Origin: an uncultured Pirellulales bacterium | Lineage (GTDB): Bacteria > Planctomycetota > Phycisphaerae > Sedimentisphaerales > Anaerobacaceae | NCBI GenBank assembly: GCA_964434085.1 | Contig: CAYSTP010000002.1 | Span: 1-41,021, forward strand | DNA length: 41,021 bases | Direction: 5' to 3' | Shown: positions 2,623-40,542 of the stretch, one piece after another | How positions within the stretch are numbered: the stretch's first letter is position 1 | Layout of the letters: each line of letters starts with the position of its first letter | The notes under the pieces: generated by a model | Database searches by the model: none | What the model was told of the DNA's origin: nothing | The model's input: the letters and a program-made list of their open reading frames with translations, nothing else | Position numbers and translations under genes: made by a program

Positions 2623-3314
2623 TGGCACGAGAAAGACCACCTGCCCCACAGGACGAAGACCCTGGCGCACCGGAATGGATGGTAACATTCAGCGACTGTA
2701 TGACGCTGCTGCTGACATTCTTTGTACTGCTGTTGACCTTCTCCAGCTTCGATGAAAGAGTCTTCAAAAAATTACGCGCCATATACTGCGACGCCTTTCC
2801 AACGATTCACTCAAGAGTTCGTGCAAGCAAGGAATCACTGCTCGAAATCGAACAGCTTCGCTACCTCGAGGATATCGACAAGGGCAGTGAAAAAGCCACC
2901 TATGAACTCGGCTCCGAAGGAGTTCTGCATGAGCAGCACACAAACGACTATAAAAAGCACAAGGTCTTTCTGATAAGGTCGGACGAAGTCTTTTGGGGAA
3001 AGGGCACGGCGATGTCACAACAGGGCCGTGAAACACTTTCGACATTGGCCCGGTTTCTCAAAGACATGCCCGAAAACGTGGTAGTCAGCGAGAATAGCCC
3101 ACAGCGAAACGACCCCGAACTAAGTATGGCTCGCGCCTGGGCGGTAATCGAACATCTGACAAGTCAGCATGGTTTGGATATAGACCGCTTCAATGTTTCG
3201 GCAGGGTCCACCATAGGGCAAACGGGCTTCGAATTATTCAGCCTGACCGAACAAGACAACCAGCCACGGCGGTTGCTTGAAATAGTACTCTTGCAGCGGA
3301 GCCTGTGTAATTGA
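2622..3314 (+). CDS. motB: Flagellar stator protein MotB, paralog 1 (OmpA-like C-terminus)
   Basis: Its ATG overlaps the motA stop. PEWMVTFSDCMTLLLTFFVLLL matches the MotB TM helix with the conserved proton-relay Asp. C-terminal LSMARAWAVIEHL...RRLLEIVLL is OmpA-like. Confidence 0.8.
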   Translation: MARERPPAPQDEDPGAPEWMVTFSDCMTLLLTFFVLLLTFSSFDERVFKKLRAIYCDAFPTIHSRVRASKESLLEIEQLRYLEDIDKGSEKATYELGSEGVLHEQHTNDYKKHKVFLIRSDEVFWGKGTAMSQQGRETLSTLARFLKDMPENVVVSENSPQRNDPELSMARAWAVIEHLTSQHGLDIDRFNVSAGSTIGQTGFELFSLTEQDNQPRRLLEIVLLQRSLCN

Positions 3315-4039
3315 GAAGAAAAAGACGCTCACAATCCGGCCAAGGCGGCCCGAAGGTGCCCGGCTACATCGTAACTTTCAGCGACATGGTTACACTGTTG
3401 CTGACCTTCTTCGTAATGCTTCTGAGCCTGGCCACCACACAGGACCCCGAGATGTTCAATTCCGGAAGAGACTCCTTTGTAAAATCGCTCAAGGGACTCG
3501 GACTCGGCATGCTTATCGGCAAGGACCAGACCATTAACTTTACAAATCCCAAGATAAAATATCCGATTCAAGACCCTGAGGACACCCGGAACAAACGGAC
3601 CATAGACGCCAAGGAAGAAAGAACACGCCGCTTATTCAATCAGCTTCGCAACTCGGCAAAAACGATGCCCAGTCAGATACCGGGCCAGCGATACGATTTT
3701 CCCGTGACCGGTGTGCGATTCGCCACCGCAAGCACTGAATTGGACACCGCTGCAAAGCAGTCGCTTAGTGAGTTATGTAAAAAGCTCTACCGCGACCTGG
3801 AACCCAAACCGGCGCAGCTCTACGTGCTGGGACTGACCGAGGAAGGCTCCGACGACAGAGAGCAATGGACGCTCTCGGCGCTGCGGGCAAAGACCGTCGC
3901 CGATTTTGTTGCCGAAACCTTCCCCGAACAGAACCGCCCCGCCGTTTACTCCTGGGGCACGGGACCGGGCCGAATGTGGAGCGGTGATAACAGTGCTATC
4001 CCGAAGGGCTGCCAAATCGTTATCGCCGTCCTCAGGTAA
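3311..4039 (+). CDS. motB: Flagellar stator protein MotB, paralog 2 (OmpA-like C-terminus, divergent)
   Basis: TTG start overlaps the stop of paralog 1, with GGAG 9 nt upstream. PGYIVTFSDMVTLLLTFFVMLLSL repeats the MotB TM/Asp motif. C-terminal TLSALRAKTVADFV is an OmpA-like remnant. Confidence 0.75.
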   Translation: MRRKRRSQSGQGGPKVPGYIVTFSDMVTLLLTFFVMLLSLATTQDPEMFNSGRDSFVKSLKGLGLGMLIGKDQTINFTNPKIKYPIQDPEDTRNKRTIDAKEERTRRLFNQLRNSAKTMPSQIPGQRYDFPVTGVRFATASTELDTAAKQSLSELCKKLYRDLEPKPAQLYVLGLTEEGSDDREQWTLSALRAKTVADFVAETFPEQNRPAVYSWGTGPGRMWSGDNSAIPKGCQIVIAVLR

Positions 4040-4148: not shown

Positions 4149-4164
4149 GGGCACGTCTTTTGCA
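4149..4164 (+). promoter_or_regulatory. Sigma-54 (-24/-12) promoter upstream of fliO
   Basis: GGGCAC-GTCTT-TTGCA compared with the consensus TGGCAC-N5-TTGCW. The GG/GC spacing is correct. It lies 34 nt upstream of the fliO GTG, in a 158-nt intergenic gap. Confidence 0.6.
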
Positions 4165-7613: not shown

Positions 7614-9080
7614 ATGAGAGAATCCGGTAAAAGCGAATTCGCCGTCAACGACTACAAGAGATTGAGCAGGCAGAACAATCTGCTCTTTATCGCAGGCACT
7701 GTTTCTGTGCTGGCAGGCCTGTTCTTTCCGAAAATCCCCGCTCTTGTTGACCTTCTCATGATTTTCAGCCTGACTTTATCGGCGGCCGTTGTAGTCATCT
7801 GTCTGCGCGGCAGCAAACCCACCGAGCTGACTGGTTTGCCTCTTCTTGCAGTCACCGCCATTGCAGCCCTGCTAACAGCGACCATAGCCTCGGCAAAACT
7901 TCTAATTATTGGAGATGCCGCCGGTCTAATCATTACACGCGTGGCACGGTTCAACATCATAGCTAATATCTTGCCGGCGCCACTGAGTGCTGTGGTCTTT
8001 ACAGTAGTATCAATTGTGCTCCTTATAGCCGCGGCGAAATCAACAAGGAAGCTTCTGCTCAACAGCAAAACTTATCTCGAAGAGGTTACCTCCGTTGAAC
8101 AGACCCAGCCCGAATTTAATCTTGTCACTGCTGAGAGCGAACAGGAAAACCTAACAGCAAAAGAAAAGGGATTCTTTTATGCCGCCCATGCCTTCGGACG
8201 TCTGGCTGTATGGCTTTGTGTGCTGATATCATCGGTTGTTATGCTCAGCCTTTTTGGTACGGCTCTTGCCGACAAAACGCTCGTCAGTCTCGCTGCAGGT
8301 TCCGGCATAATTCTGCAGGGCTCAGCCTTTTTCGTAGCCCTCGCCGTATCTCATTTGACACGTAAGATTGCCTTACAATCATCGCAGAGGAATCGTATGA
8401 CCGAAGAGCAGTTCCAGCAGCGTATTAAGGTCGTCGCACGCGAAGTGGCTGCGATACAAACAGACAGCCATCTGCATCGTCCATCGAGCGACGAGCTACT
8501 CCACAGGACGCCCTACGGCCCAGCGACGAGCGACGCATCTTTGTTTGACTGTAACGAGTTCGAAGATGAAGCTTCGTACGACTGTGTGACAAATCTGCTG
8601 ACTGAATCGGGCGGTGGCAAAGTGCTGCTTATGGCCGCCTGTGGGTCGCAATATGCGCCTGTCACAATCCCTGTCAATATCGCCGTGCGCCTGGCTGCAA
8701 GAGGGCTAAAGACCCTGATAATCGACTTCGACCTGAAACGCTCCGCTGTGCAGCGGGTCTTCGAAACAGGCGACTGCAATTCGCGGGCGGTGAAAACATG
8801 TATTGAAAATATCTCGCTGATTTCCGGCAAACATCTTGCCCCTGCAAAAACGCACATGCTGCAACAATTATTCACAAAGGCGGAAAAGCTCTATGACTAT
8901 ATTATAGTCTATGCTCCGGATGCCGCTGTCGGGCCGCAAATGTCCGAATTCTTCACGACAGCTATGTTCTTCGGCACAGAAAATACCGTAACAAATCCAG
9001 TATTGGATAACTTAATCAACGAATTGAGCAAAACCGCTTGCCGGGTGCTCACACCCTCACCTTTGCTTCAGACAGCCTGA
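7614..9080 (+). CDS. Atypical fusion: degenerate FlhA-like transmembrane domain plus MinD/ParA/FlhG-like domain lacking the Walker A P-loop
   Basis: It occupies the flhA position after flhB. The N-terminal ~260 aa resemble the FlhA TM region by eye, but the FHIPEP loop and the FlhA C-domain are absent. The C-terminal KVLLMAACGSQYAPVTIPVNIAVRLAARGLKTLIIDFDL...YDYIIVYAPDA resembles a MinD fold, with ACGSQYAP where GKGGxGK[ST] should be. Confidence 0.55.
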   Translation: MRESGKSEFAVNDYKRLSRQNNLLFIAGTVSVLAGLFFPKIPALVDLLMIFSLTLSAAVVVICLRGSKPTELTGLPLLAVTAIAALLTATIASAKLLIIGDAAGLIITRVARFNIIANILPAPLSAVVFTVVSIVLLIAAAKSTRKLLLNSKTYLEEVTSVEQTQPEFNLVTAESEQENLTAKEKGFFYAAHAFGRLAVWLCVLISSVVMLSLFGTALADKTLVSLAAGSGIILQGSAFFVALAVSHLTRKIALQSSQRNRMTEEQFQQRIKVVAREVAAIQTDSHLHRPSSDELLHRTPYGPATSDASLFDCNEFEDEASYDCVTNLLTESGGGKVLLMAACGSQYAPVTIPVNIAVRLAARGLKTLIIDFDLKRSAVQRVFETGDCNSRAVKTCIENISLISGKHLAPAKTHMLQQLFTKAEKLYDYIIVYAPDAAVGPQMSEFFTTAMFFGTENTVTNPVLDNLINELSKTACRVLTPSPLLQTA

Positions 9081-9091: not shown

Positions 9092-11149
9092 TTATGTCCC
9101 CAGACCCAGATAGCTCATCTGGCTTCGCAGCAGTGAAAGCATCTTTTCCAGCCGGGCAAAACGCCCAATCAGCCTTTCTTCCCTTACCTCCAGACGCTTT
9201 TCTTCAGCGTCAATCTTGTCCTGCAGCAGTTTAATCTGGTCGCTTATATGTTCCTGGTCAATCTGAATCGAGCCGGTAGTGGCCTTGAGCATCCTGTCAA
9301 GCGTATCTTCCATGGCGCCGGTGAACCCCTGCTTTACCCGTATGGTTGCATATATCGTGCCGCCCGGCGTTCCGGTAGTCGGCGCGGTTACCTGAAGACC
9401 GTTTTCCCCGTAAACTGCATTGCCGTTATCATCGAACGTACTATCGCCGGTAATCACATTATCGACAATGGTAGCCGCCCGATACGCCGAGTCACTTTCA
9501 CTCGAAAGTTTGAAATACGCCTCGGACAGATTGCCCGAACCGTCATAGACTACTTTGACCCGGTAGCTGCCGGCCGTAGTGTAGTCGCTGCTGGCGCCGT
9601 AGAACCTGACGTTGGCACCGTCGCTGCTGCCGCTCTTGTCCGCGCCGAGCAGGGCCAGAACACCGAGATAATCCTCGGCTATCGCCTCATCAAACTCGCC
9701 CGCGTCAAACGAGAGCATACCGTCTTTGTCAAGCTCAAAACCTATATGCGCAGGTGTAAGGAACGTGTCCAAATCTTCGATAAAGCCCATGGTCTGAGAA
9801 TAAAGCGGCGAGCTAATCTGCTCCTTTATCGTCCTGACCACAAAATCGCCCATCAAAATGCCCGCCGTCTTGAGCACATCGTTGTAACCGGTCTTCTCCT
9901 TGATATAAGCGACAGCGTCGTTATAGGCCTCGACAAACTTATCAATCTTGGTCTTTATCGAAGCCACGTCTCTGGTCATGGTAATCTGCTCGCCGGTTTC
10001 ATCAGTCGTATCGTGCAAATGAAGCGTCACACCGCTGATAACGTCGTCAATAGTGTTCGAGCTTCGCGTAATCCAATCCTCGGCCGCCGGCGGCCAGCCG
10101 TCTACCTTAATCTGGCTGTCCTGTGCCTGCTGCGTCTCGGTAAAGTCAGTCTCGGCAAAACCAACAAGCGACGCATCCACATCGCCGCCCTCGGTAACAT
10201 CCCAGTCGGTCGTCTCAGTGGGCAAGGTCAGTGTAGCTGTACTGCTGGTAAAGTCGAGGTCAATCGATATACCACTATCGCCCGATGTATCGTCTGTCAG
10301 AATAATCTGGCCGTTCTCGAAAACCGCCTTGGCCACACCATCGAATGCATCGTTTATTTCACCAATCAGGTGCTCGATACGGGTATTGGCAGTTACCGTA
10401 AGCTGAACCGGCGTTATCGCAGCACCGCTATGGTCCGTGCCGCTGATGGTTATCGTGTCGCCGGTGCCGAGCGTGCCGTCGAACTGGTCCAGCTCAGTAA
10501 TCTTTGTGCTCAGTGTGGCGTTGTCGCCGTCGGCGGTAAACTCCCAATTCATCTGCCACACCTCTGTACTGCTGGCATTGACGGAAATCCCGTAATCAGT
10601 ACCCGCATCGTTTCCGCTTAATACCAGATGATACCCATCGTTATAATAAAGCAGACCAGCCGTTACACCGGGGTTGTTGGCGTCATTATTTATCAGCCCG
10701 ACCAGATCAGAAAGCGTTGTGTCGGTGGTTGTTGTAATTATCACCTCCTTGTGATTGTACGAGTAAATGAATGTGCCCTCATCAACATAGTCCTCGGCGT
10801 ATTCCAGACCGGCGGTGTGGACCCATCGCTCGGCGCTGGCTAATTGATTGACAACAATCGTATGATTGCCCTCGAAGGCGTTATACGTCGCCTCGGCGCT
10901 GATTATGTCCGCATCGCTGCTGGCCACATTAAAGGACCGAAGCTTGTTCGCATCGGACAAATCACGCACCGTCGTTCGCAGAGTACCGAGCTTGCTTTCG
11001 ATATCACTCAGGGCATCTTTCTTCTCGTCATAGCCCTCTTTGCGGGTTTCATACATAGTAACCGTGCGACGTTCAATCGCCATAAGCGCCGCAATCAACG
11101 CCTGAGTATCTATACCCGTCGCAAGGCCGGGAAGTTGTATCGTTGACAT
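9092..11149 (-). CDS. fliD: Flagellar filament cap protein FliD (HAP2), enlarged
   Basis: N-terminus MSTIQLPGLATGIDTQALIAALMAIERRTV and a C-terminal coiled coil (LQDKIDAEEKRLEVREERLIGRFARLEKMLSLL) are FliD hallmarks. The central region is Thr/Ser/Asp/Gly-rich. Confidence 0.9.
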   Translation of the reverse strand: MSTIQLPGLATGIDTQALIAALMAIERRTVTMYETRKEGYDEKKDALSDIESKLGTLRTTVRDLSDANKLRSFNVASSDADIISAEATYNAFEGNHTIVVNQLASAERWVHTAGLEYAEDYVDEGTFIYSYNHKEVIITTTTDTTLSDLVGLINNDANNPGVTAGLLYYNDGYHLVLSGNDAGTDYGISVNASSTEVWQMNWEFTADGDNATLSTKITELDQFDGTLGTGDTITISGTDHSGAAITPVQLTVTANTRIEHLIGEINDAFDGVAKAVFENGQIILTDDTSGDSGISIDLDFTSSTATLTLPTETTDWDVTEGGDVDASLVGFAETDFTETQQAQDSQIKVDGWPPAAEDWITRSSNTIDDVISGVTLHLHDTTDETGEQITMTRDVASIKTKIDKFVEAYNDAVAYIKEKTGYNDVLKTAGILMGDFVVRTIKEQISSPLYSQTMGFIEDLDTFLTPAHIGFELDKDGMLSFDAGEFDEAIAEDYLGVLALLGADKSGSSDGANVRFYGASSDYTTAGSYRVKVVYDGSGNLSEAYFKLSSESDSAYRAATIVDNVITGDSTFDDNGNAVYGENGLQVTAPTTGTPGGTIYATIRVKQGFTGAMEDTLDRMLKATTGSIQIDQEHISDQIKLLQDKIDAEEKRLEVREERLIGRFARLEKMLSLLRSQMSYLGLGT

Positions 11150-11301: not shown

Positions 11302-12270
11302 CTATTGAAGCTTCGATTTTACATCCTCTATAACGCTCCGCAGCGTCTGTTCCAGTGACATTTTGGGTTCATAACCTGTTACTGCCTTAATCCTGTCAAG
11401 ACACGGCACCCGCCGCATCATATCATCAAACGGCTTGCCGTAAGCCTGTTCATAAGACAGGTACTGTTTTTTGCTGCTGCTGCCGGTAAGTTCAATTATC
11501 CTGTCGGCAAGAGCCTCAATAGTCACCTCCTCATCTGAACCTATGTTGTAAACACCTCCTGTGGCCTTGTCGCACTCCATCAACGCAATAAATCCGCCAA
11601 CAACGTCGCTCACATGTGCAAAACAGCGGCTCTGTTTGCCGGTACCATAAATATGGATAGGCTTATTTCTAAGCGCGCTGGTTACAAACCGCGGCACTAC
11701 CATACCGTATTGGCCGATTTGCCTCGGCCCGACTGTATTGAAAATCCGCACAACAACTACCGGCAGATTGAACTGGTCCCGGTAAGCAAACGCCAGAAAC
11801 TCATCTATCGCCTTACTGCACGCATAAGACCATCGCGCAAACCTCGTGCTGCCCAACACTGCATCATCATCCTCTGAAAACGGCACCGCCTCGCTCCTGC
11901 CGTAAACCTCACTGCTGGAGGCTATAAGCACTTTTTTGCCGTATCTGTTCGCACTTTCAAGCACGACCTCACAGCCGTGAATGTTGGTCTCGATGGTTCG
12001 CACCGGCTCATCCACAATAAGCTGCACACCCACCGCCGCCGCAAGGTGATAAACAACATCGCACTGCCTTATCAGGGCATCCATTATCTGTGCGTTGCGC
12101 ACACTGTCCTGCACGAAACTAAAGGACTTATTATCCTTCACTGATTGCAGATTTTTCAGACTGCCCGTACTGAGGTCATCTACAACCATCACCTGGTGAC
12201 CGGTCTGCAGCAGTTTTTCCACCAGGTGCGAGCCGATAAAGCCCGCTCCGCCCGTAACCAATGCTCTCAT
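11302..12270 (-). CDS. NAD-dependent NDP-sugar epimerase/dehydratase (extended SDR family)
   Basis: MRALVTGGAGFIGSHLV Rossmann motif, catalytic YACSK (YxxxK), SSSEVYG. Substrate specificity cannot be called from the sequence alone. Confidence 0.9.
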   Translation of the reverse strand: MRALVTGGAGFIGSHLVEKLLQTGHQVMVVDDLSTGSLKNLQSVKDNKSFSFVQDSVRNAQIMDALIRQCDVVYHLAAAVGVQLIVDEPVRTIETNIHGCEVVLESANRYGKKVLIASSSEVYGRSEAVPFSEDDDAVLGSTRFARWSYACSKAIDEFLAFAYRDQFNLPVVVVRIFNTVGPRQIGQYGMVVPRFVTSALRNKPIHIYGTGKQSRCFAHVSDVVGGFIALMECDKATGGVYNIGSDEEVTIEALADRIIELTGSSSKKQYLSYEQAYGKPFDDMMRRVPCLDRIKAVTGYEPKMSLEQTLRSVIEDVKSKLQ

Positions 12271-12326: not shown

Positions 12327-15300
12327 CTAAGCGTTCACCAAAACAGCGTTCGAAAGACTTCCCTCAAGCCGCTCACATCTGTCTATAAGCTTTCTAATGT
12401 TACCGTTGCCGGGGTCGATTTCGAGGCAGCCTCTGAGTTGCTCACCTGCGCTTTGAAGGGCTGCTCCGGCATAATTCGGCATCTTAACCTCGATATAGGA
12501 TTGTCCCAGCGATATAAAATTCATCGCAACCAGACATTTGAAGTGCAGTTGCCTCATGCCGGATGGAATTTGCTCCCACTGCACCTCAGGAAACAGCTCA
12601 TCGTGCGAGAACGTCTCGGCGTAACTCTTTACAATTCCAAAATGCGCTCGCGCCTTATCTACACTGTACTGCCGCGACAGACTTTCAGAGGCCAATCGCC
12701 TATAATACAAAGCAGCTTTTAAGTGATGGGCCTTCAGTCCCGCCTTTACAAAGCGCCTCATCATATCATAATCTTCACCTATCCGCAGGGTCTCGTCGAA
12801 CAAACCTATTTTATCGAACACGCGCCTTCGAATGCAGGTTCTGAAGGGAACAACAGGAAACCCCGCACGGAATAAATCCCTGATAAGAATCCTGCGGTCG
12901 GCATATTCCGGTCGCTTGATTATCCGAATGGGTTTGCTGTCTTCCTCAACAAGATAATCATCGCAGTAAACCACATCAGCATCCTGATGCTCGTAGAACT
13001 CAGTAAGATGTCGGCCAATAAAGTCAACAGCGATAAAGTCGTCAGCATCGACCTTTATCAAAAACTCGCCGCGCGACTGCCGGATGCCTTCATTATGCGT
13101 TGCCGCCAGACCCCGATTAGCCTGTTTGAAGTATCTTATATGGTCATCTTTATAACTGCGTACTATTTCCTCCGTTCCGTCGGTGGAGCCATCATTGATT
13201 ATTACCAGCTCGAAGTTCCTGTAGTTCTGAATCAGCACAGACTCAATGGCCTGCCTTATATACTTTTCAGCATTGTACGCAGGCAAAATCACAGAAACGA
13301 GCCGATTTCTTCCGGTATGATATGTTTCAAACGTAGAGATATACGAGGTGCCGTACCTCTTTCCCACCTTATGCCGCTCGTAATAACTGTGAAACTCGTT
13401 GCCGTGCTCGATACCTTCCCGGTTGAAATAGTAAAGCCCAAGAAATTCCGGAATATGTTTGAAACAGTACCCTTCGGAAACACGTAACCAAAAATCCCAG
13501 TCGGCTGCACAATCCAGCGTCTCATCGAAATATCCTAATTCCTCATGCAACGAGCTGCGCCACATCGGCTGAGAACCTACACAACATCCCAAAAGCAGTC
13601 TTTCCCGGCTGTAATCCGGCTGCCGGTACGTTTCAACTGCATTGTGTTTCTCAAAAGTAGCGTTGGGCGTGTCCGTACATATTTGGTCGCCGTATACAAG
13701 AGCAACCTCAGGATTATTTATTAACTCATTTGACAAAATCTCAAGAGCATCCCTCCGATGCCGGTCGTCAGTATTGGCGTTAGTTAGAAACCTGCCACTG
13801 GCGGCCCTCACCGCACGATTCCACGCTGCATAAACACCCTCCTTTTGTTCGGTCTTTATATAGACTATGTTGCTATATCCGGCTTGAAACTCCTTCACAA
13901 TCGCCTCTTCGTTCTGTTGCGAGCCGCTGTTGACAACTATAATCTCAAGCCTGTCAGCAATGGTCTGGTTCTCCAGGTCTTCGAGGCAGCCCCTGATAAA
14001 TTTTTCCGAGTTATAAGTGGATACTATGGCAGAGACAAGATATTTATATTCCTTGTTATCCGACCTCACTTCCGACAGCGGGGTAACTGCCGGTTTGCCG
14101 TCTATGCCAAGACTGGCCCGAACAGCTTCTTCGACCATCTCGAATGAAATAGCCTTTATGCACTTAATATCCTTTCCGTATTTGCACTTCCAGTTACAGC
14201 CGAAACAATCCATTTTCTTATAAACCATTTTTGTCAGTTCACTGTAAGGCCAAAACCTCCCAAAGTGTCCTCCGCCCACTAACACTACGTGGGGACAACC
14301 TGCTACAACAGCAAGATGTGCCGGAGCCGTACATGGACTCACGCATAATCTGGACCTTGAAATAAGAGCCGCCAGTTGCCTTACCGACGTTTCCCCGCAA
14401 AGGTTATGGACATTCGGATGGTCCGTAAGCAATATAATCTTGTCCGCATTTAGCTTGTTTGCTTCCAGGCCGCAAATAATGACAGGGATATCCCGATGAC
14501 TTGAAATTAATTTTGACCAACCATCGATGCGCCAATCACGAATTGGAGATTGTGCAAATGGAGCAATAAGAATCGGATTTTCCACACGAATACGCTCTAA
14601 CAAACTTTCCGCAAAATCAACGTCATCTTTCGTAAACCACGCCGCAGGCGTATATTCTCCCTCTATTTTTGCGCCCAACTGACGCAGGAATTCTTCATTT
14701 CGAAACGTTTCCAGCTTAATTCCTTCCGAGGCCGGCAATATCCTCGTGAAGTATTTATTATTATTCTCAATCTGCTCGGCGGTCTGATTGGCGGTATCGC
14801 CTGAAGTGGTAATCCGCTCTTTAGCACCGCTGTTCATAGCGATAAAATCGCTGACCCTGTCTCTCGAATGGGCCGGGCAAATCGCAATGTCATATTTTCC
14901 TGACTGTATCTGACGTATAAATAGGCCGGCATATTCCTGGTCAGATGTAATTTTAGTACGGTTAAAAGTTATAATTTCATCTATATACGGATTGGCTTGT
15001 GCCAAATCGCCAACCTTATCAGCAACGACAAGGGTAATATGGCAGTTGGAATATAACTGCCTGAAATATTGAAATGAACCGCCGAATATCACGAGGTCCC
15101 CGATAGAATCGCTGCGAACTATAAGTACTTTCCTTATGTCACCACCAACTCCACAAAGGCCGGCATTTATCTTATGAATATTGTCCGCCGTCATTTCTAT
15201 CTTGATCTGCGTCCCATGATTACAGGGGGTTGTCAGCAATTCTGCCTTCAAACCACAGGACTGAATAAATTCCCAGACTCTATGGCCTTTCTGGGCAGGC

Positions 15301-18300
15301 ACAGAAGTATCAATCCGATGATTCACAGGACAAATGCCTGCATCATCTATAATTACTATCCCACCCTCTGCCATCATAGGTATAATCAACTGGAATTCAT
15401 TAAAGATAAAGTCTTTGTCATTAACAGAATCCAGAAATGCAAGGTGAAATTTCTGTTTCTCTAATCCATCCAGATATTTAATTGAATCCGACTGTATAAA
15501 TTCAATATTTGTTAACTCATGGCAAAGCTGCTTACTTACCCTCAAAGAATCCTCGCTTATATCAACGGATATAAGCTTGCCTCTATCGCCAAGTGAACGT
15601 GAAATATGATAAGTGCTGAAATGCTCTTCGTAAAAGCTGCGAATCGTACCTGTTTCGATTGCTGAAATCTTTTCATCCACAAAACTGCTTTTAAGCTGTT
15701 CGACGGCGGCAATTACATGCTCCATTGCCTTACCGCTGGAAGGTTTGGCTGCTTCTTCAAGCACAAAATCCATCATTACTTCCGGATGTGTCCCCTTGAA
15801 TTCTTCAGTATGAGAACTTTTATCACCTGTCCATATTGGATACTTGGCGTCAATATCGACACGATTCCACGGCTTCCATTTCATATAGCACTGTTCATAC
15901 CATTGCTCCAGGTCAACACCCCACGATTTTCCCCAGCCGTACCTGCGATAAAGCTCTATTTTCTGCTTTACTTGCTTGTCCAGAACGTAACTATAATGGT
16001 AAAATTTGACTCCCATCCTCCGCGTGGCAGTTCCGTCCAGAAGCTTCATTTGCTCCGTTGTCTTATCGATTCCAGGCCAAACCATCGTCGGTGGACGGTG
16101 CGTGGTAAATACGGCGCCCGGCACATATTTAAACAGCCTGCGATAATGGTTTCGCGGTTCGTAAAATTTCGGCGAAGTGAAAATATAATCCAGCCCCTTC
16201 CAGAAACTATCAGGAATGAAGTTTACCTGTGTGATTGTAGGGTCCTTTTTAAGAATACTCCTTATTTTCTCAAGGTCCTCACCTTTATAAACCTCATCGG
16301 AATCTATGAGCCAGACATAATCACCGGTGATACGCTTCAGCGCCTCGTTTTGCATATCGCACTTTTCCAGCCATTTGCCCTGAATAAGTTTTATCTTTCC
16401 TGCCGGGTCAGGGAACGACTTTATAAACTCAACCGTACCGTCGGTCGAGCTGCCGTCTGGATTGGCTGCGAACATGCATTTCTCCACCGCCCCTTCGACA
16501 ATAATAATCTCATTCGCAAAATCATAGATGCTCTTTAGGCTGTATTCTATGAAAGGCACCCCGTTAAGGACAATCATTACGAATGAAAATTTAGGCCCTG
16601 TTTCTGACATCTGCAAAGTCGTGGAAGTTTCGTTCTTGTTAATGCATTTTGCCGGCAGTTTTTCTTTCTCCGCCACCCGCCTCATGGCTGAAATACTGAC
16701 TCCGTGTTTCAGGTTCAGATAGTTTTCGTTTACTTTGTACCACTCCTGCCGAGCTTTTTTAGCTGCACCAGCCGTAGCATCGTGGTAGATAACAGCTCGC
16801 GGCCAATAAATTATCTTATTAAAACATTTGTATCTTTTGCCAATTCTATAACTCAAATCAGAACCTTCGGCTCCGAAAAGCAATGGGTCCATACCATTTA
16901 TATCTAAATATATCCCGGTAAGAAAAGCTGAGTTACCTTCCTGGTCACAGAAGGTACAGAAAGACCCATCGCCGCGGTCGTAGTTAAAAGCCTGACGGTT
17001 TGCCTCAGTGTCGGTTACCGGCAGCACCTTGCCCCGAAAACCGAAGATATCATATCTATTGAAAGCCTCTTTTATAGAACCGATGTAATCAGGACCAACG
17101 AACGCATCATCATCAAGAAAAGCGACAATTCCGCCTCTGGCAAAACAAGCTCCTATATTCCGCCCTTCTGAAAGGTAAAGATTCGCAGGGCATTTGATAT
17201 ACTGGTCGCAAAGCGGTTTGATAATACCCTCATCAGTCAGTCCGTTATCTACTACAATTACTTCGTACTTTTCGCGGGGAGTTTGCTGCTTTTCGACTGA
17301 TTCGATACACTTCCTGACATCTTCGGTTCTGTCATAAGTTACAATCACAACCGATACATCAACTTCTTTGGTCTTTTCGCCCCTGATAAATCGGGGCAGA
17401 CTTCTATAGTCAATCGAAGTTTTGTATTTGTGCATCAACTCGAAAGCCTCTTCAAATCTCTCCTTATTAAACTCGTCTTGTGCCTTCAAGAAATACTTTA
17501 CCGCTTCGCAATTAGCTTCGCCGCTTCCAACCGCTTGCAAAGGAGATGTTTGCATGGATTCATTTGGCTCTGCATGCCCTTTTGTGAGCATTATCCTCTC
17601 AAACATCTTCCTGTAGTTTTCCGCCTGTTTATTCCAGTCCCAGACTTGTATCGATTTGAGAATCTCCGCGGACATCTTTAATCGCAAAGCCGGATTGTCA
17701 CGAAGCAAAATTAGTTTATTCTTTATATCGTTGACATCCCGCTCGATAAAAAATCCGTTCTTGCCGTCTTCAATCAACTCCGGCATATTGCCAACACGAG
17801 TTGTCAGTAAAGGCGCTCCGCACGCCGCCGCCTCAAGACACGGATTCGGCGTACCTTCGGCGGTACTGGCACAGATATACACATCAATCGAGCGGTAAAA
17901 CTCGAGCATTTCGTCTCTGTTGCGCCATTTATCTTCGCGCGCCGCCACCACCAGTTCTACTCCCTCAACTGAATTCGTCGCCGGTACTATGAAGTCATGG
18001 TAGCCCCGTGTATTGCCGTGATTCTTTATACTGCCCGCCCAGCCGACTCTAAGTTTCTGATGCGCTTGCCTGCTGGGTGCAGGCCTAAAGAATTCGGTAT
18101 CAACCCCATTGGGCGTACAGAAGACCGGAACCTCGAAACACGGTGAAAATTCCTTGTACAAAAGCATACTGTTTACGAATATCCCGCGAGCCAGCTTCCT
18201 CATAAATCCAAGAATCTCATCCCGGCCCCCGGCCATCTCCTGATGCGAACAGATTCCAATCAACAGCTTATGTTTGTTTTGGATAAACACCTCGAGCAAC

Positions 18301-24576: not shown

Positions 24577-26001
24577 CTAATTAACTGAAGCAATTTCGTC
24601 CTGTCGTTGCGAATCTATTTGGGTTTCCAACCCAATCAAAAGCTCATTGATTTTTGACAGTTGCTGTTTTTGAGAGTAGTTCTGCTCAACAAACTGCCGA
24701 TATCGCGCAGGCTCGTACCGCCCGGACTGAATCTGTTCGCAGAACTGCTCGAAAGTATTAAAAAGAAACTCATCAGGGTAAATCTCACAGGCGCCCGGGA
24801 AATTATGTATCACCGGTTTAAGACCCGAAGCCATACCCTGCATTACCCCCATCCCCTGACTTTCGATGATACTGCTTGAAACTATATAGTGTTTGTCCGC
24901 CAGCCAGTTATTTACGTCCGCCTGCCAGCCGTCAAACAGCACTATACCAGTAAGTCGCGTCTGATTTATCATGTGGCGCATATACTGCTCGAGCGCACCG
25001 TCCTGGAACGCACCTGCAACAAAGAGCCGATATTCAGGGTCGATACAATGAAGCTTCTGCATGCACTGCAATAGAAATGGCAGGTTTTTGACCATCCGCA
25101 GATTGCCCACGAAGGCAATATTCTTTCCACGCGGCCGCTCCACAAATTCCATTGCATCCAGGTCCACTCCGTTCGGTATCGTCACTATTGAAGTTGATGG
25201 ACTGATTTGACCGGTCGCATTTAACAAGGCCTTCATCACAAAGCTGTTGCCGACCGTTACAAGCACATCCACATTGGTCCAATTAACCTGTCTGGGAATA
25301 TCCGTATAAGCCTCATAACGATGAAGCCGGACAATCGTTTTGCACACCTTAGGTCCGTTGGAACCTATAACCGCAAGGTCGGTGCACCACTCGAACCAGC
25401 TTATATCCGACCACTGCATCAATTCGTACAGTTCGTCTTTCGTACGTCCGGTAAAATGGCGTATTTCAAATCTATTCCTGATATAATCGCAAACAGGGTC
25501 GAGAAACGTACTGCCGTCAGCGCCGCAGAAAAAGGCGATTCTCGGCCTCTTGCTTTTTATCACTGTCAGCATGTGTTCAAGTATCTCCTGGCCGGGCCAG
25601 CAATCCATCGACCGCAGCAGAACTTCAACAGCGCCGGCCTGGCTGCCCTGGTCCAGGAACAGTTTTGCAGTACGGTTCAACAACTCGGGGTTCAGAATCC
25701 CTGCTTCTTGGGCCTGGTCAAACAAAGCTTCGGCTTCGCCCGCCTTTCCCGCCGCGATATAAACCTCAATCAGATTCATCAGAATCTGTGGGCTGTCGCC
25801 CCCGAACTGTCGCGCCCTCAGCAGGTAATCTATGGCCTGGCCAGACCGACCCAGACAATGCAATAAGGCGCCGGCGTCATTTAATGCCTCGACATCCTCC
25901 GGTACTGCCCGCAGGTACTCTATGACACAGGATAAAGCCTCTTCATGTCTGCCTGCCTCGGTCAGGGCCATGGCTTTTTCGTATTTTTCCTTATTTCCCA
26001 T
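24577..26001 (-). CDS. TPR-domain glycosyltransferase (N-terminal TPR, C-terminal GT-B/GT4-like); architecture as in flagellin glycosyltransferase FlmG
   Basis: TPR repeats (KYEKAMALTEAGRHEEALSCVIEYLRAVPEDVEALNDAGALLHCLGR...) followed by a GT-B half (IPNGVDLD...FVGNL...SSSIIESQGMGVMQGMASGLKPVIHNF). I chose the ATG at 26001 as start, with GGGAG 9 nt upstream. The maximal ORF begins at a TTG (26067) inside a palindromic repeat. Confidence 0.8.
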   Translation of the reverse strand: MGNKEKYEKAMALTEAGRHEEALSCVIEYLRAVPEDVEALNDAGALLHCLGRSGQAIDYLLRARQFGGDSPQILMNLIEVYIAAGKAGEAEALFDQAQEAGILNPELLNRTAKLFLDQGSQAGAVEVLLRSMDCWPGQEILEHMLTVIKSKRPRIAFFCGADGSTFLDPVCDYIRNRFEIRHFTGRTKDELYELMQWSDISWFEWCTDLAVIGSNGPKVCKTIVRLHRYEAYTDIPRQVNWTNVDVLVTVGNSFVMKALLNATGQISPSTSIVTIPNGVDLDAMEFVERPRGKNIAFVGNLRMVKNLPFLLQCMQKLHCIDPEYRLFVAGAFQDGALEQYMRHMINQTRLTGIVLFDGWQADVNNWLADKHYIVSSSIIESQGMGVMQGMASGLKPVIHNFPGACEIYPDEFLFNTFEQFCEQIQSGRYEPARYRQFVEQNYSQKQQLSKINELLIGLETQIDSQRQDEIASVN

Positions 26002-26055
26002 GGGTTTTGCTCCCTGTTTCATCAAGAAACCCGAGATAGCCCACGAAAACAGCTT

Positions 26056-26094
26056 GGGGCCCCTCAAACGCGATAGGTTGCGCTTGGGGAGTCC
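26056..26094. repeat. GC-clamped palindromic repeat, family 1, copy 1
   Basis: GGGGCCCCTCAAACGCGATAGGTTGCGCTTGGGGAGTCC. The arms CCCTCAAACGC / GCGCTTGGGG can pair. It lies in the leader between the sigma-54 promoter (26134-26148) and the TPR-GT start. Confidence 0.8.
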
Positions 26095-26133
26095 ACCTGA
26101 ACTATCTGCGCACTAATACTCACAGGCGAATAT

Positions 26134-26148
26134 GCAAATCCCGTGCCG
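26134..26148 (-). promoter_or_regulatory. Sigma-54 (-24/-12) promoter upstream of the glycosylation gene block
   Basis: The minus strand reads CGGCAC-GGGAT-TTGCA compared with TGGCAC-N5-TTGCW. It sits in the 261-nt gap between the flgL stop and the TPR-GT start. Confidence 0.55.
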
Positions 26149-26262: not shown

Positions 26263-27444
26263 TTACAGGTAATCCAGCAGCGAGACGTTCAGCAGCTTGC
26301 CGGCCATGGAAAGCGACATCTGGTAGAGAATCTCACGCCTCGAAAGGTCTATAGCAAGCTGGGCAATATCCGCCTGCTCAACCCGGGCCTTTTCATCCTC
26401 AGTGCTGTATTGCAGGGTCTCAAGATTGCCCTTGAGCTCTTCCAGAAACCCGATTTTGGCGCCGACCATCACCGATTTTTGAATCAAAACACCGTTCAGC
26501 TCATCGATAGCGGCAAAGGCGTTGGCCCGCAGTTCTTCCATATCGGCTGTAGTCAGCCCCTCGGTGGCAAGTCGGTCCCGCAGGGTAATCAGCGCGTTGA
26601 AAACATCATATGTACCGGGCACTCGCACCCACTCAGTGCCGGTGGTGTTTATGCCGGTCGTGTCCACGTAAAGTACCTGGCCTGTCCGCGAGTCCGTGAC
26701 CATCTGGTTGGCGTTGCCACCGGGGGGCACCACAACGTCCGTAAGACCGCCGTCGATTGATATTCGATAATTGCTGCCGTCATGCGTAACCGTCAGCCAT
26801 ACGTCTCCGCGAACACTGCTGGTCCCGGTCCCCGCTGCAGCGCCGCAGTCTCCGCTGAAAACCGGCTCGGACCTCACATCCGACCGAAACAGCTCATCTC
26901 CGGAATAAAAAGCCGAAGCATCAACTCCTGGCGCCACCTCAACATCACGCCTCAAATCACTGCCCTGGTAGGTCACAGACGTTATCCTGCCGTCAACTCT
27001 CGTAACCGCGTAAGGAGCGGTCGAAGTATTCGAGCCCGCGAAGATATATTTGCCGCTGTGTTTCGAGTTCGCCGCCGCAACTATCCTGTCCAGGGCATCG
27101 TTTATACCCTCAACTGTAACATTCAAGCTGACGCCGCCTCCGGTCCCGCCTGTTACATCACCAAGAAGTTTCTTGGCTTCGGCCAGTGCGCTCTTGATAT
27201 CATCGATGGCGATACTGGCGTATTCCAGAACGTCCGACACCTCCGACAGATTATCGAGGTAGTTTGCGATGGACCTTTGCTGCGAACTGAGATTCAGCAC
27301 ACGATAAGCAGCCGAAGGCGCATCGCTGGCCCGATTGATACGCGAACCCGTCGTGACCTGTTCCTGAAGTCTGAGTATCTCACGAGCATTCAGGCTCAAC
27401 CCGAAACTCACATTGTTGTACAGACTGCTAAGTGTTCCACCCAT
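26263..27444 (-). CDS. flgL: Flagellar hook-filament junction protein FlgL (HAP3)
   Basis: LQEQVTTGSRINRASDAPSAA and GKYIFAGSNTSTAPY match FlgL motifs. The C-terminus LAIDLSRREILYQMSLSMAGKLLNVSLLDYL is a flagellin-type helix. It lies directly downstream of flgK. Confidence 0.85.
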   Translation of the reverse strand: MGGTLSSLYNNVSFGLSLNAREILRLQEQVTTGSRINRASDAPSAAYRVLNLSSQQRSIANYLDNLSEVSDVLEYASIAIDDIKSALAEAKKLLGDVTGGTGGGVSLNVTVEGINDALDRIVAAANSKHSGKYIFAGSNTSTAPYAVTRVDGRITSVTYQGSDLRRDVEVAPGVDASAFYSGDELFRSDVRSEPVFSGDCGAAAGTGTSSVRGDVWLTVTHDGSNYRISIDGGLTDVVVPPGGNANQMVTDSRTGQVLYVDTTGINTTGTEWVRVPGTYDVFNALITLRDRLATEGLTTADMEELRANAFAAIDELNGVLIQKSVMVGAKIGFLEELKGNLETLQYSTEDEKARVEQADIAQLAIDLSRREILYQMSLSMAGKLLNVSLLDYL

Positions 27445-27463: not shown

Positions 27464-29449
27464 TCACATTATCGTCATAAGACTTTCCATAGTGGACTGA
27501 ACCGTGCTCAGGTACTTCGCCATCGACTGAAACATCTGCTCGAATATCAAAAGTTGCGCCGCCTCTTCGTTGATGTCAACACCGCTGATGTCATCTCGCT
27601 GATTAGTCAGATTCTGCACAATCACCATCAGATTATCTTCACGCATCTGCCTTATCGACAACTGCTGGCCGACATCAGTCACCAGCTTACGGTGGAAGGT
27701 GCCTATCGACATATTGTCAAGGCTGCTGATAGGTTCATCTTTCAACTGGCTCATTCGCAGAGCATTGTAATTATCCGTACCATCCGCTCCCAGAGACGTG
27801 GCCACGCGTGTAGGGTCCTCGGTGATTTGCGAGCGTACCGCTATATTCAGCGCACCGCTGCCGCTGAAAAAGCAGTTCACCCCCAAAGCCGCAAGCAACC
27901 CGGAAGTGTCCGTACTTGCAAAAGCAGCGACTTGAAAACTGTCGGTTGCCCCGAAGTCTCCGACGCCGACCGATATATCGATTCCGTTGCCGATGGAAAG
28001 TTTGTCGCCTGCCGCATAACCTTGGCCGATGTTCAGGGTCTTAATGACCTGCCCTGCCCCGTTTCTCACCGTAAGAGTCAAAGTATCATTACCTACAATA
28101 CCCGCTCCGGACACCTCGAAACTAAAGGTGTCGTTCTGAGAGCCGGTGTAGATACCGGATACCGTGATGGTCGGTACGGTTCCGCCGCTCAAACTGCTTG
28201 CGGTTGGTGTCGGCAGAACAGCAGGAAGGAAGTCGAATTTATAATTGGCAGCCGACTGCTCGATATGCAGACCAAGTGCGTCATACCAGCAGTTCAGACC
28301 CGTAATCGCGTTAATCTCATTAGCAACGTCTGATACGGTCAAACCCACAAGTGGGTCGGCAGGGACTATAGTGGCAAGGTCTATTTCATGTCTGCTTATT
28401 GTATCCGTTGCTGTGTCGGTGACTCTTATATATACCTTGCCGTCGGTGATGGGAGGCTCGAAGTTAGCGAGCACCTCATCCGTCAGCGGCCAGCCGTCAA
28501 GCCCCGTAAACGAGCCGTGCGAACCCATGCCCTGGACCTGGAAACTATTGACCTGGCGGATGAGAGCCAATGCAAGGTCATCGAGATCCTGAGCTACGTC
28601 GGCAAAAACCGTGTTCTTCAGATTCATCAGCCCTGCAAGTTTGCCGCCGCTGACGTATTTAGTATAGTTGAGCGCACCTTTTACAGTGAGCCCCAGACTA
28701 CCGTCGTCCATTATCCCGGTTTCAAGCTCGGTTGCTCTCGTTGCAATAACAACCGCGATACCTCCCGCCTCCACATCAACTACCCCGTTGTCACGCTCGA
28801 ACACACTGACCCCGATAATCTCCGAAAGCTCGGTTATCAGCTGGTCTCTCTCGTCGCGCAGATTGTTGGCCTTAGTACCCTGAAGCTCCATCTTCTCGAT
28901 ATCATCGTTAAGCCTGGCGATTTGATTGATAATAGCATTGGCCTGCTCTACATAGTTCTCCGCTTCCAACTGTATCTGGGCGTCAAGTTCACCAAGAAAT
29001 GAGCCGAGTGTACGGAATTTAGTGGCCAGAGTCTCTGCGCTGGTAACAACCTGTCTCTGCCAGACAATCTCATCGGTATGATTAGTCAGGTCGGCGAATG
29101 CATTGAACAGATTGTCAATCGCCTCATTCAGACCGCCACTGCCGGATAGTTCGCCCAAAGCGGTCTCAACCGTCTGTAGTGTGTCATATTCCTGCGATAC
29201 CTGCGCTAGCGACGAGCCTTGGCGAAGAAGTTCCTTCTCCAGCAGGTTATCAACCATGCGCGTAATACTCGAGGATTTGACCCCGCCGCCGATAATCGCC
29301 GACTGCCTGACGGTGCTGTAAGCGGGTGTAAAATTGATTCGCTGCCGGTGATAGCCCGGCGTGGCCGCATTGGCAAGATTGTTGCCGATTATATCGAGCG
29401 CCTTCTGAGCCGCCTGAAGCCCGCTTATGCCTATGGAAAGATTGGACAT
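27464..29449 (-). CDS. flgK: Flagellar hook-associated protein FlgK (HAP1)
   Basis: MSNLSIGISGLQAAQKALDIIGNNLANAATPGYHRQ N-terminus. C-terminus SGVDINEEAAQLLIFEQMFQSMAKYL. Confidence 0.92.
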   Translation of the reverse strand: MSNLSIGISGLQAAQKALDIIGNNLANAATPGYHRQRINFTPAYSTVRQSAIIGGGVKSSSITRMVDNLLEKELLRQGSSLAQVSQEYDTLQTVETALGELSGSGGLNEAIDNLFNAFADLTNHTDEIVWQRQVVTSAETLATKFRTLGSFLGELDAQIQLEAENYVEQANAIINQIARLNDDIEKMELQGTKANNLRDERDQLITELSEIIGVSVFERDNGVVDVEAGGIAVVIATRATELETGIMDDGSLGLTVKGALNYTKYVSGGKLAGLMNLKNTVFADVAQDLDDLALALIRQVNSFQVQGMGSHGSFTGLDGWPLTDEVLANFEPPITDGKVYIRVTDTATDTISRHEIDLATIVPADPLVGLTVSDVANEINAITGLNCWYDALGLHIEQSAANYKFDFLPAVLPTPTASSLSGGTVPTITVSGIYTGSQNDTFSFEVSGAGIVGNDTLTLTVRNGAGQVIKTLNIGQGYAAGDKLSIGNGIDISVGVGDFGATDSFQVAAFASTDTSGLLAALGVNCFFSGSGALNIAVRSQITEDPTRVATSLGADGTDNYNALRMSQLKDEPISSLDNMSIGTFHRKLVTDVGQQLSIRQMREDNLMVIVQNLTNQRDDISGVDINEEAAQLLIFEQMFQSMAKYLSTVQSTMESLMTIM

Positions 29450-38220: not shown

Positions 38221-38274
38221 ATCCGAATCCTTATAACTTTCACCGCCTGGCAATACAGCACCTAAGACTTAAGA

Positions 38275-38289
38275 GCAACCGCCGTGCCA
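38275..38289 (-). promoter_or_regulatory. Sigma-54 (-24/-12) promoter of the flgD-flgE... operon
   Basis: The minus strand reads TGGCAC-GGCGG-TTGCT, a full match to TGGCAC-N5-TTGCW. It lies 55 nt upstream of the flgD ATG and is divergent from the sigma-54 activator gene. Confidence 0.7.
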
Positions 38290-38733: not shown

Positions 38734-38761
38734 CCCATTTTGCCTCTGTTTGCAAAATAGG
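38734..38761. repeat. Palindromic repeat, family 2, copy d (leader of the activator gene)
   Basis: CCCATTTTGC-ctctgttt-GCAAAATAGG. It ends 12 nt before the ATG at 38774, and its 3' arm overlaps the only SD-like AGGA. Confidence 0.65.
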
Positions 38762-38773
38762 ACTCAGACACGC

Positions 38774-40366: not shown

Positions 40367-40381
40367 TGGCACGGGTGTTGC
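40367..40381 (+). promoter_or_regulatory. Sigma-54 (-24/-12) promoter downstream of the activator gene
   Basis: TGGCAC-GGGTG-TTGCT, a full match to TGGCAC-N5-TTGCW. It lies 162 nt after the activator stop and about 160 nt before the next plus-strand ORF. Confidence 0.7.
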
Positions 40382-40412
40382 TGTATGTATTTCAACGGCT
40401 GACAAGTGCGCT

Positions 40413-40451
40413 GGGACCCCATTGTGCGCTTTTTCGCAAAATGGGAACCCC
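40413..40451. repeat. GC-clamped palindromic repeat, family 2, copy a
   Basis: GGGACCCCATTGTGCG-ctttt-TCGCAAAATGGGAACCCC. It begins about 20 nt downstream of the predicted sigma-54 transcription start. Confidence 0.75.
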
Positions 40452-40490
40452 TCCACCTTGCCTTCGGGTAAAGGTGTGTTCGAAATTATA

Positions 40491-40518: not shown

Positions 40519-40542
40519 ATATAGATACAAAGGCTCCTTACA

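Follow-up and report, generated by a model that had tools for sequence, protein, structure and literature searches.

A ten-module giant gene between flgL and fliD of a planctomycete contig and its probable role in flagellar glycosylation

We studied the 41,021-bp planctomycete contig CAYSTP010000002.1, which is covered over its entire length as given in the NCBI-sourced assembly (GCA_964434085.1) and is called the window in the following. Between the flagellar genes flgL and fliD, its minus strand carries one very long open reading frame (ORF), here referred to as the giant, which encodes a chain of predicted glycan-building enzymes. This raises the question whether the giant is a real gene, what its product is composed of and on which acceptor such a product would act. 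Our answer is that the giant probably represents the variable multi-enzyme part of a planctomycete flagellar glycosylation island and acts on a flagellar protein; its acceptor, its donors and its order of action are what we infer. Its most striking property is the in-frame exchange of modules between close relatives.

A single frame with ten enzyme modules

The ORF (12327-22130, minus strand) comprises 3267 codons from its first ATG, and its translation is without internal stop. At about 50% GC, the chance of such an open frame is (61/64)^3267, i.e., about 1e-68, and thus the ORF is not there by chance. Each of the ten inter-module junctions is crossed by one unbroken alignment in 2-16 homologous proteins or loci, which include at least one other organism. 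We also compared the modules on codon level with their orthologues in the relative L001 (handles with L denote loci, those with P proteins). For nine modules, the ratio of nonsynonymous to synonymous divergence (dN/dS) ranges from 0.08 to 0.19; respective values are 0.07 for FlgK/FlgL and 0.09-0.19 for the neighbouring glycosyltransferase (GT) and TPR genes. That is, the giant is a true fusion, and the modules it shares with L001 are under purifying selection. A scan for sigma70 promoters and terminators between 9000 and 27600 found sites no more common than in shuffled sequence. It thus provides no evidence for internal transcription units and is uninformative in this respect.

Three start codons are candidates, namely ATG at 22130 (3,267 aa), GTG at 21926 (3,199 aa) and ATG at 21896 (3,189 aa). 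The first of them makes the giant overlap a conserved 111-aa FliT-like ORF (22031-22366) by 100 nt. The NCBI-sourced copy of the protein (P0001) has 3,189 aa and its alignment begins at residue 79 of the 3,267-aa ORF; likewise, the gene called in L023, the closest relative, opens with the Met that corresponds to residue 79 (21896). The called start in L001 is located still further upstream. The GTG at 21926 is preceded by GGAAAGGA, which lies inside a 43-nt stretch (21928-21970, minus strand) that is 100% identical between the window and L023, with surroundings that are about 10% different. This stretch may be a translation-initiation or regulatory element. Since all start candidates precede the first conserved domain, which starts near aa 113, the protein has a length of 3,189-3,267 aa.

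With regard to membrane association, we computed the Kyte-Doolittle hydropathy of the product. The maximum 19-residue mean is 1.58, i.e., none reaches 1.6, such that the giant should be soluble and without membrane helix. The best reading is one soluble cytoplasmic polypeptide of about 360 kDa.

Next, we assigned the modules, denoted M1 to M10 from the N-terminus (Table 1). Pfam was run on the whole protein and on the ten segments, and matches above the gathering score were counted. Judged by these and further profile and structure matches, the chain consists of seven GT modules, two S-adenosylmethionine (SAM) dependent methyltransferases and one PaaK/CapK-type adenylating ligase. The GT modules split into three of GT-B type (M1, M4, M8) and four of GT-A/GT2 type (M5, M6, M9, M10). 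The latter reach Glycos_transf_2 scores of 69.7, 47.5, 93.1 and 114 bits (cut-off 23.3) and contain DxD-type motifs (DDD, DSD, TDD and DAD, respectively). The Pfam score of M4 is 61.8 bits, and M8 matches Glyco_transf_9 with 49.7 bits (cut-off 22). Among PDB entries, M10 is closest to chondroitin synthase (2z86), namely to its second GT2 domain. For M8, the PDB sequence search only provides a generic GT9 structure (3tov). Autotransporter heptosyltransferases, which we had considered as a protein-directed GT9 precedent for M8, gave no match in this search and were dropped.

M3 has no match in the Pfam copy used. It matches the NCBIfam models for PaaK, F390 synthetase and the DVU_1553 ligase, and the PDB sequence search relates it to the PaaK structure 4r1l (E 1.9e-27 over module aa 11-322); furthermore, its orthologues carry a precomputed CapK_C match, and the TGGSTGQP motif of M3 represents the phosphate-binding loop of adenylate-forming (ANL) ligases. 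Phosphopantetheine-binding (PP-binding), condensation and ketosynthase (KS) domains were not found in the giant by the Pfam and NCBIfam scans.

M1 was modelled with AlphaFold2 using 17 homologues (pLDDT 92, pTM 0.89), which results in a compact two-lobed GT-B. Foldseek places the model closest to GT4-type structures in the PDB (ManT 7qsg, PglA, GlgM, PimA/PimB'; TM up to 0.65, probability 1.00). According to the model, M1 is a complete compact GT-B fold. M1 is also the signature module of the family.

An earlier note on this DNA, made from the letters alone, had described the ORF in similar terms. Its uninterrupted 9,804-nt frame is found as described, with the reservation that ATG 22130 is only one of three possible starts (21926 or 21896 may be used instead). 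Its reading as a true fusion rather than neighbouring genes agrees with the spanned junctions and the dN/dS values, and we also see no Shine-Dalgarno sequence before the Met that opens the sixth domain (Met 16610). All ten of its domain calls are recovered by Pfam, NCBIfam and PDB matches at essentially the same coordinates; solely the first had been taken for a GT-B half and is to be corrected, given the complete fold modelled for M1.

A conserved slot with variable content

To place the giant among its relatives, we searched for homologues, which resulted in 29 further proteins with lengths of 1,856-5,536 aa; of these, at least 25 match one or more modules of the window at 50-79% identity. 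Several are annotated simply as 'FkbM family methyltransferase' or 'glycosyltransferase'. Where labelled, the relatives belong to metagenome-assembled genomes (MAGs) called Pirellulales, Phycisphaerae, Sedimentisphaerales or Planctomycetota. M1 as such is rare: 62 clusters were found at E<=1e-30 among 1.84e9 representatives, where the top tier are mostly giants and the next tier are stand-alone proteins of about 300-360 aa.

The gene order flgH-I-J-N-K-L, TPR-GT4, GT2, TPR, 111-115-aa ORF, giant, (SDR), fliD, with SDR for short-chain dehydrogenase/reductase, is found in at least 7 independent planctomycete contigs. The slot after the small ORF contains a giant of 2,204 aa in L003, of 2,549 aa in L020 and of 5,536 aa in L019. 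It holds at least 2,257 aa in L023, where the gene is ended by the contig edge, and at least 2,946 aa in L006; in L001, a Pirellulales MAG, 1,898 aa are followed by at least 3,483 aa. L018 is also among the contigs with the conserved slot. The complete 5.06-Mb Phycisphaerales MAG of L022 has the four-gene core and a slot without giant. The core is itself widespread, given that a search with the TPR-GT4 protein yields more than 1,100 homologues; among them, the 120 best are about 57-86% identical and, where they carry names, all from Planctomycetota. Together with the giant-less L022, this implies that the giant is an optional, variable tenant of the slot.

In L022, the FliT-like gene is followed (14244-20960) by two SDR genes and two pairs of E1-dehydrogenase/transketolase-like genes. 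These may be enzymes for an unusual sugar.

The two giant genes of L001 are in the same frame with a single TGA between them (15695-15730), and the Logan assembly L002 has the same stop. We considered whether the pair is a read-through or sequencing-error form of one gene; the ATG found 30 nt behind the stop, together with a GAAGGA Shine-Dalgarno sequence, speaks for two real genes.

Next, we compared the relatives module by module. The chain is conserved at both ends, i.e., in an N-terminal block of M1, a methyltransferase, M3 and M4 and in a C-terminal block of M9, M10 and the tail, with a variable part between them. M4 directly follows M1 in many family members, and some have a methyltransferase alone between the two; in the lineage of the window, the ANL ligase is inserted at this place in addition to the methyltransferase. 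Shared modules keep the same order across the slot orthologues, i.e., in the window, L001, L003, L018, L019 and L023.

The clearest case is provided by L023, which is 90% identical to the window on nucleotide level from the TPR-GT4 gene to the middle of M5. On protein level, the identity is about 90% over residues 79-1750, decays over 1751-1840, is absent over 1841-2333 and is again about 90% from residue 2334 on, i.e., it returns at the first residues of M8. That is, L023 carries an unrelated GT2 module (about 330 aa) where the window has M6 and M7 (about 490 aa). Three differences set L001 apart from the window: a different methyltransferase stands in for M2, the M4/M5 linker holds an insertion of about 1,270 aa (sulfatase-like, stop, B12/radical-SAM, GT2), and an extra block between M8 and M9 consists of a second M9 (59% identity) and a GT2 with TPR. 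M9 is also found twice in L019, and L018 has GT2-GT4-GT2 between M4 and M10. In these alignments, whole modules are gained, lost and exchanged in frame at the linkers between relatives.

The GC content at third codon positions (GC3) is 0.40-0.50 for M5-M8, with the lowest value of 0.40 for M7, compared to 0.51-0.62 in flanking genes; in GC and GC3, M5-M8 (14076-17525) are also below the remainder of the giant. The synonymous divergence (dS) to L001 is 0.48-0.64 for M7, M8 and M10 and 1.0 for flgK and flgL. Both would fit a separate history of these modules and hint that they arrived more recently, where neither is a rigorous test.

The sulfatase/alkaline-phosphatase-superfamily and B12-binding radical-SAM domains of L001 (14159-17977) are absent from the window. 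In that lineage, the glycan may thus undergo sulfate or phosphate chemistry as well as C-methylation.

Operon partners and flagellar context

The giant lies in a co-directional gene string from flgL to fliD, as the earlier note had stated: FlgK, FlgL, three GT/TPR genes, the giant, the SDR and FliD are all encoded on the minus strand. Respective coordinates are collected in Table 1. The four genes between flgL and the giant overlap or nearly abut one another. In the TPR-GT4 protein, TPR repeats cover about aa 29-122 and Glycos_transf_1 covers aa 314-446. The 111-aa ORF of the window itself has no Pfam or NCBIfam match; we label it FliT-like because of precomputed FliT (PF05400) matches to the orthologues in L019 and L023 only. 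Overall, the island comprises nine GT domains in three genes, two methyltransferases, one ANL ligase and one SDR.

Table 1. Coordinates of the modules of the giant and of its neighbouring features in the window, listed from upstream to downstream on the minus strand
Feature	Position (strand)	Size or residues	Assignment	Evidence or remark
FlgK	27464-29449 (-)			with FlgL, upstream border of the slot
FlgL	26263-27444 (-)			with FlgK, upstream border of the slot
GGCACGGGATTTGCA	26133-26147 (-)		sigma54-type -24/-12 element	66 nt upstream of the TPR-GT4 start
TPR-GT4 protein	24577-26067 (-)	496 aa	N-terminal TPR, C-terminal GT-B	conserved first operon gene
GT2 protein	22986-24572 (-)	528 aa	GT2	C-terminal TPR-like (ANAPC3) region
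TPR protein	22363-22995 (-)	210 aa	TPR	weak similarity to SycD/LcrH-type type III secretion chaperones
FliT-like ORF	22031-22366 (-)	111 aa	FliT-like	same position conserved in relatives
M1	20763-21803 (-)	aa 110-456	small complete GT-B (modelled)	Pfam Glyco_trans_1_2, C-terminal half only
M2	19821-20762 (-)	aa 457-770	class-I SAM methyltransferase	Pfam Methyltransf_23/11
M3	18546-19820 (-)	aa 771-1195	PaaK/CapK-type ANL ligase	NCBIfam, PDB 4r1l, TGGSTGQP loop
M4	17526-18545 (-)	aa 1196-1535	GT4 GT-B	Glycos_transf_1; E-x7-E motif EGTPNPCLE
M5	16596-17525 (-)	aa 1536-1845	GT2	Glycos_transf_2; FLDDDA
M6	15741-16595 (-)	aa 1846-2130	GT2	Glycos_transf_2; LIDSDE
M7	15156-15740 (-)	aa 2131-2325	O-methyltransferase-like	Methyltransf_24
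M8	14076-15155 (-)	aa 2326-2685	GT9 heptosyltransferase-like GT-B	Glyco_transf_9
M9	13326-14075 (-)	aa 2686-2935	GT2	Glycos_transf_2; NANTDD
M10	12651-13325 (-)	aa 2936-3160	GT2	Glycos_transf_2; KVDADD
C-terminal tail	12330-12650 (-)	107 aa	no family match	conserved with M9-M10 in L018, L019/P0002, P0009
SDR	11302-12270 (-)	322 aa	extended-SDR nucleotide-sugar epimerase/dehydratase	sole sugar-precursor gene of the window
FliD filament cap	9092-11149 (-)			downstream border of the slot

Every family assignment made in the 41-kb window is either flagellar or glycan-related, and five ORFs are without clear assignment. The plus strand encodes fliI (3' end), fliJ, motA, two motB-like genes, fliO, fliP, fliR and flhB. 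On the minus strand, the string from fliD via the giant to flgK is continued by flgN, a flgJ-like gene, flgI, flgH, flgA, flgG, flgF, flgE and flgD.

We also screened the window for the sigma54-type pattern GGCAC-N5-TTGCW. Four matches are found compared to 0.32 expected, and each of them falls into a gap that precedes or separates genes of the flagellar cluster. The window also encodes a sigma54 activator (38750-40204). The match before the TPR-GT4 gene, GGCACGGGATTTGCA, is exactly conserved in L022 and L023 and shows one mismatch in L001, L006, L019 and L020. It is likely the promoter of the glycosylation operon. The other elements are located at 4150-4164 (+), 38274-38288 (-) and 40368-40382 (+). 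Two of these precede fliO and flgD; the third (40368-40382) lies between the convergent activator gene and an ORF at 40392-40841, with no gene called downstream on the same strand.

Beyond the slot, further giants are found next to flagellin genes. P0027 (3,600 aa; GT9, methyltransferase, GT2, GT4, TPR), a distantly related giant, is encoded directly downstream of fliW-csrA-fliC. Its contig also carries PSCyt1/PSCyt2/PSD1 domain genes, which we take to be typical of Planctomycetota. The place directly after fliW-csrA-fliC is also taken by an M1-bearing ORF of more than 1,470 aa in L010, which is a MAG labelled Verrucomicrobiota. In an Acidiferrobacteraceae MAG, a flgK-like gene is followed about 1.5 kb downstream by P0012, an M1 giant of 1,969 aa. 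The flagellin of L021 is a short form of 268 aa, the central segment of which is Ser/Thr-rich. The flagellar setting described in the earlier note is thus seen again in the shared slot of at least 7 planctomycete contigs, in the sigma54 motif and in the giants after fliC. That is, the flagellar link holds for Planctomycetota, plus one Acidiferrobacteraceae locus and one MAG labelled Verrucomicrobiota.

Some further observations concern the flagellar genes of the window. A 488-aa ORF at 7614-9080 (+) follows flhB, where flhA is expected. It has no Pfam match at 1e-4; with NCBIfam, aa 20-145 weakly match the N-terminus of FlhA/SctV, and aa 326-435 resemble the P-loop region of MinD/tyrosine autokinases. 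ORFs of comparable size and without name adjoin fliD in L019 and also in L003, where one has a FHIPEP match. The two MotB-like genes after motA are located at 2622-3314 (+) and 3311-4039 (+), the first with a MotB plug and without the peptidoglycan-binding OmpA domain; the same pair is found in L019 and L020. No convincing family match is available for a 421-aa ORF between flgF and flgE (34745-36010, minus strand), for a 230-aa ORF in the fliJ-motA gap (1152-1844, plus strand), which shows faint similarity to the FlbB collar protein, and for the 149-aa ORF at 40392-40841 (-).

Proposed role, alternatives and known systems

The reading that we consider probable would work as follows. The TPR-GT4 protein, the GT2 protein with its TPR-like end, the TPR protein and the FliT-like protein would pick a secretion substrate, most likely flagellin, in the cytoplasm, i.e., before flagellar type III export. 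The initial sugar or sugars would be attached by these conserved small proteins of the operon. From there on, the giant would lengthen and decorate the O-linked glycan with one linkage per GT module, the methyltransferase modules adding methyl groups. The ANL module would activate a carboxylate, either that of a uronic or nonulosonic acid on the glycan or that of a free acid, in order to form an amide or ester, and a modified nucleotide sugar would come from the SDR. Between the conserved end blocks, middle modules that are gained, lost or exchanged would alter the glycan from lineage to lineage.

In function, the closest known systems are flagellin glycosylation islands. The island of Pseudomonas aeruginosa is located between flgL and fliC. 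Flagellin glycosylation genes of P. syringae and P. aeruginosa have been mapped to the flgL-to-fliD stretch (PMC3927599). As in the window, the islands of P. aeruginosa PAK and P. syringae (fgt1/fgt2, viosamine) combine GT, methyltransferase and sugar-modifying genes at this place and are variable, there between strains. They serve cytoplasmic O-glycosylation before export, which we propose for the window as well. Compared by description, they consist of separate genes of ordinary size, whereas the window has ten modules in one chain and the variation is found inside the ORF.

FlmG of Caulobacter crescentus is a flagellin O-GT composed of TPR and GT-B, the TPR domain of which binds flagellin (PMC7591256). 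It shares its layout with the neighbouring 496-aa TPR-GT4 protein rather than with the giant, and both are encoded with flagellar genes. In contrast to what we propose for the island, FlmG moves a single pseudaminic acid and needs no extension machinery; the window has no genes for nonulosonic-acid synthesis. When the PDB was searched with the sequence of the TPR-GT4 protein, only designed or generic TPR proteins matched, which is uninformative on the relatedness of this protein to FlmG, and its 120 listed homologues carry generic names only.

In architecture, the giant is closest to multi-module GT polymerases and to A064R. WbdA-type polymerases use one GT module per linkage, and the distribution of modules differs between serotypes (PMC11231755). 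Like the giant, WbdA, WbbB, WbbM, ORF6 of Klebsiella pneumoniae O7 and the Hib capsule polymerase hold several GT modules, and sometimes a methyltransferase, in one soluble or peripheral polypeptide. Such chains have 2-3 GT modules, act on undecaprenyl-linked acceptors with Wzm/Wzt nearby, and several have a coiled-coil ruler. The giant, in contrast, has 7 GT modules and 3 others, and no Wzm/Wzt-like transporter or priming enzyme was found in the window.

A064R of the chlorovirus PBCV-1 is a soluble, cytoplasmic protein of 638 aa with two GTs and one methyltransferase, the domains of which act from N to C; it finishes a protein-linked glycan, i.e., the N-glycan of the viral capsid protein (PMC9614988). 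The same review counts it among the few enzymes with three transferase domains and gives four GT domains for the largest predicted viral example (PMC9614988). Both A064R and the giant are soluble multi-domain chains of GT and methyltransferase, but A064R is viral and has three domains.

In evolution, the giant resembles nonribosomal peptide synthetases and polyketide synthases (NRPS/PKS), which we use as an analogy only. They too are giant chains of linker-joined modules that are diversified by insertion, deletion, duplication and exchange, and they share the ANL domain. They differ from the giant, which is without carrier, condensation and ketosynthase domains and the product of which would stay on the acceptor protein.

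Several observations weigh against the proposed role. GT2, GT4 and GT9 enzymes are equally typical of lipopolysaccharide (LPS) and exopolysaccharide (EPS) synthesis. The window contains no flagellin gene, and the SDR is the only sugar-precursor gene nearby. The likeness of the TPR-GT4 protein to FlmG is one of domain layout. A glycan of at least 9 residues on many sites would need to fit through the narrow flagellar export channel. All sequences stem from metagenome assemblies, and a (pattern-limited) genome scan for M1 found MAGs of at least 8 lineages and no cultured organism. Within the literature searched, no planctomycete flagellin glycan is reported.

Loci with M1 outside flagellar clusters also weigh against the proposed role. 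On an Acidobacteriota chromosome (L007, 9332-12235), a 746-aa M1-M4 protein and a separate 217-aa MTase_24 protein are found among non-flagellar neighbours (G6PD, 6PGD, pilM and spoT genes). We searched with tblastn of flagellar proteins around the M1 loci of Acidobacteriota, Vicinamibacteraceae, Melioribacteraceae, Anaerolineales, Syntrophaceae and Lentisphaerota; the five non-planctomycete loci other than L007 have no flagellar gene within 10 kb either. The occurrence of M1-M4 in L007 implies that it is an older two-enzyme unit that was recruited into the flagellar operon.

Given flagellar glycosylation, a further question is what the fusion is for. It is quite possible, albeit short of our expectation, that the giant is a toolbox in which the fusion ensures equal amounts and co-localisation of the enzymes, where the order of reactions follows from substrate specificity and possibly several acceptors are served. 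Such a role is compatible with flagellar glycosylation. It would fit that the module order is not fully fixed in the family (M2 precedes M1 in P0011 and L015), that separate genes exist (a 267-aa MTase_24 in L003, the 217-aa one in L007 and stand-alone M1 proteins of about 300-360 aa), and that the chain is split in L001 into two genes, the second with its own Shine-Dalgarno sequence. It fits less well with the order of shared modules kept among the six slot orthologues and with A064R, the one characterised three-domain case, in which the domain order equals the reaction order.

A further reading is strict colinearity, i.e., sugars and decorations would follow one another on the flagellar glycan as the modules do along the chain. 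We regard this as a tentative and rather doubtful reading. As part of it, and with the same reserve, strains as similar as those of the window and L023 would have their glycan reprogrammed by the exchange of cassettes at the linkers. If so, the probable driver would be pressure by phages or grazers on the flagellar surface.

It is unlikely that the glycan is not attached to flagellar proteins at all but is a glycolipid or the polysaccharide of a sheath, capsule or holdfast, which would share with the flagellum nothing but its regulation. The GT2 and GT9 families typical of LPS and EPS, the M1-M4 core outside flagellar loci and the sheathed flagella reported for some planctomycetes (PMC7175336) would agree with it. 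Yet the giant is without candidate membrane helix, and the search of the 41-kb window yielded neither a transporter nor an initiating phosphoglycosyltransferase; likewise, no ABC transporter, Wzx/Wzy or phosphoglycosyltransferase is listed in the Pfam tables of the L019 and L020 flanks. Furthermore, the operon partners are TPR proteins and a FliT-like chaperone rather than membrane machinery, and other giants directly follow fliC.

To our knowledge, all characterised flagellar glycosylation islands primarily modify flagellin, and related giants stand beside fliC, not fliD. Both make it improbable that the acceptor is another flagellar secretion substrate (FliD, FlgL, FlgK or hook protein), which one could otherwise conclude from the giant's position between flgL and fliD and beside a FliT-like gene, FliT being the chaperone of FliD (PMC8036289). 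Finally, that the giant is an artefact, i.e., a mis-assembly of a metagenomic contig in which repeated GT2 domains could mislead the assembler, or several genes merged by sequencing errors, we consider negligible: independent assemblies from other samples hold unbroken 2,204-5,536-aa orthologues in the same slot, every junction is spanned, the shared modules are under purifying selection, and the GT2 paralogues inside the giant are with a pairwise identity of only 23-36% too divergent for mis-joins.

Considering flagellar glycosylation as the role of the giant, what is unusual compared to the known kinds is its scale together with the in-frame cassette exchange, i.e., a conserved and rapidly re-shuffled family of mega-enzymes in planctomycete flagellar operons. 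Chains of this family have ten or more modules and up to 5,536 aa, compared to two or three modules in characterised multi-GT enzymes (PMC11231755, PMC9614988). The earlier note had named no characterised flagellar glycosylation enzyme of this architecture, and we found none in the literature either; a full-text search provided no paper on giant or multi-domain GTs in flagellar loci or on planctomycete flagellin glycosylation.

The conserved flagellar-operon setting suggests an acceptor that can be tested. Relatives with clean replacement, insertion and duplication of whole modules represent a natural experiment on module order vs. glycan sequence. If colinearity is true, glycan structures would be readable from sequence, and the family would be a glycan counterpart of NRPS/PKS logic, i.e., a scaffold with ready-made compatible linkers for custom or designer protein glycans. 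Finally, the giants suggest that the flagella of Planctomycetota, a phylum for which we found no earlier report of flagellar glycosylation, are heavily glycosylated and that this glycosylation diversifies rapidly.

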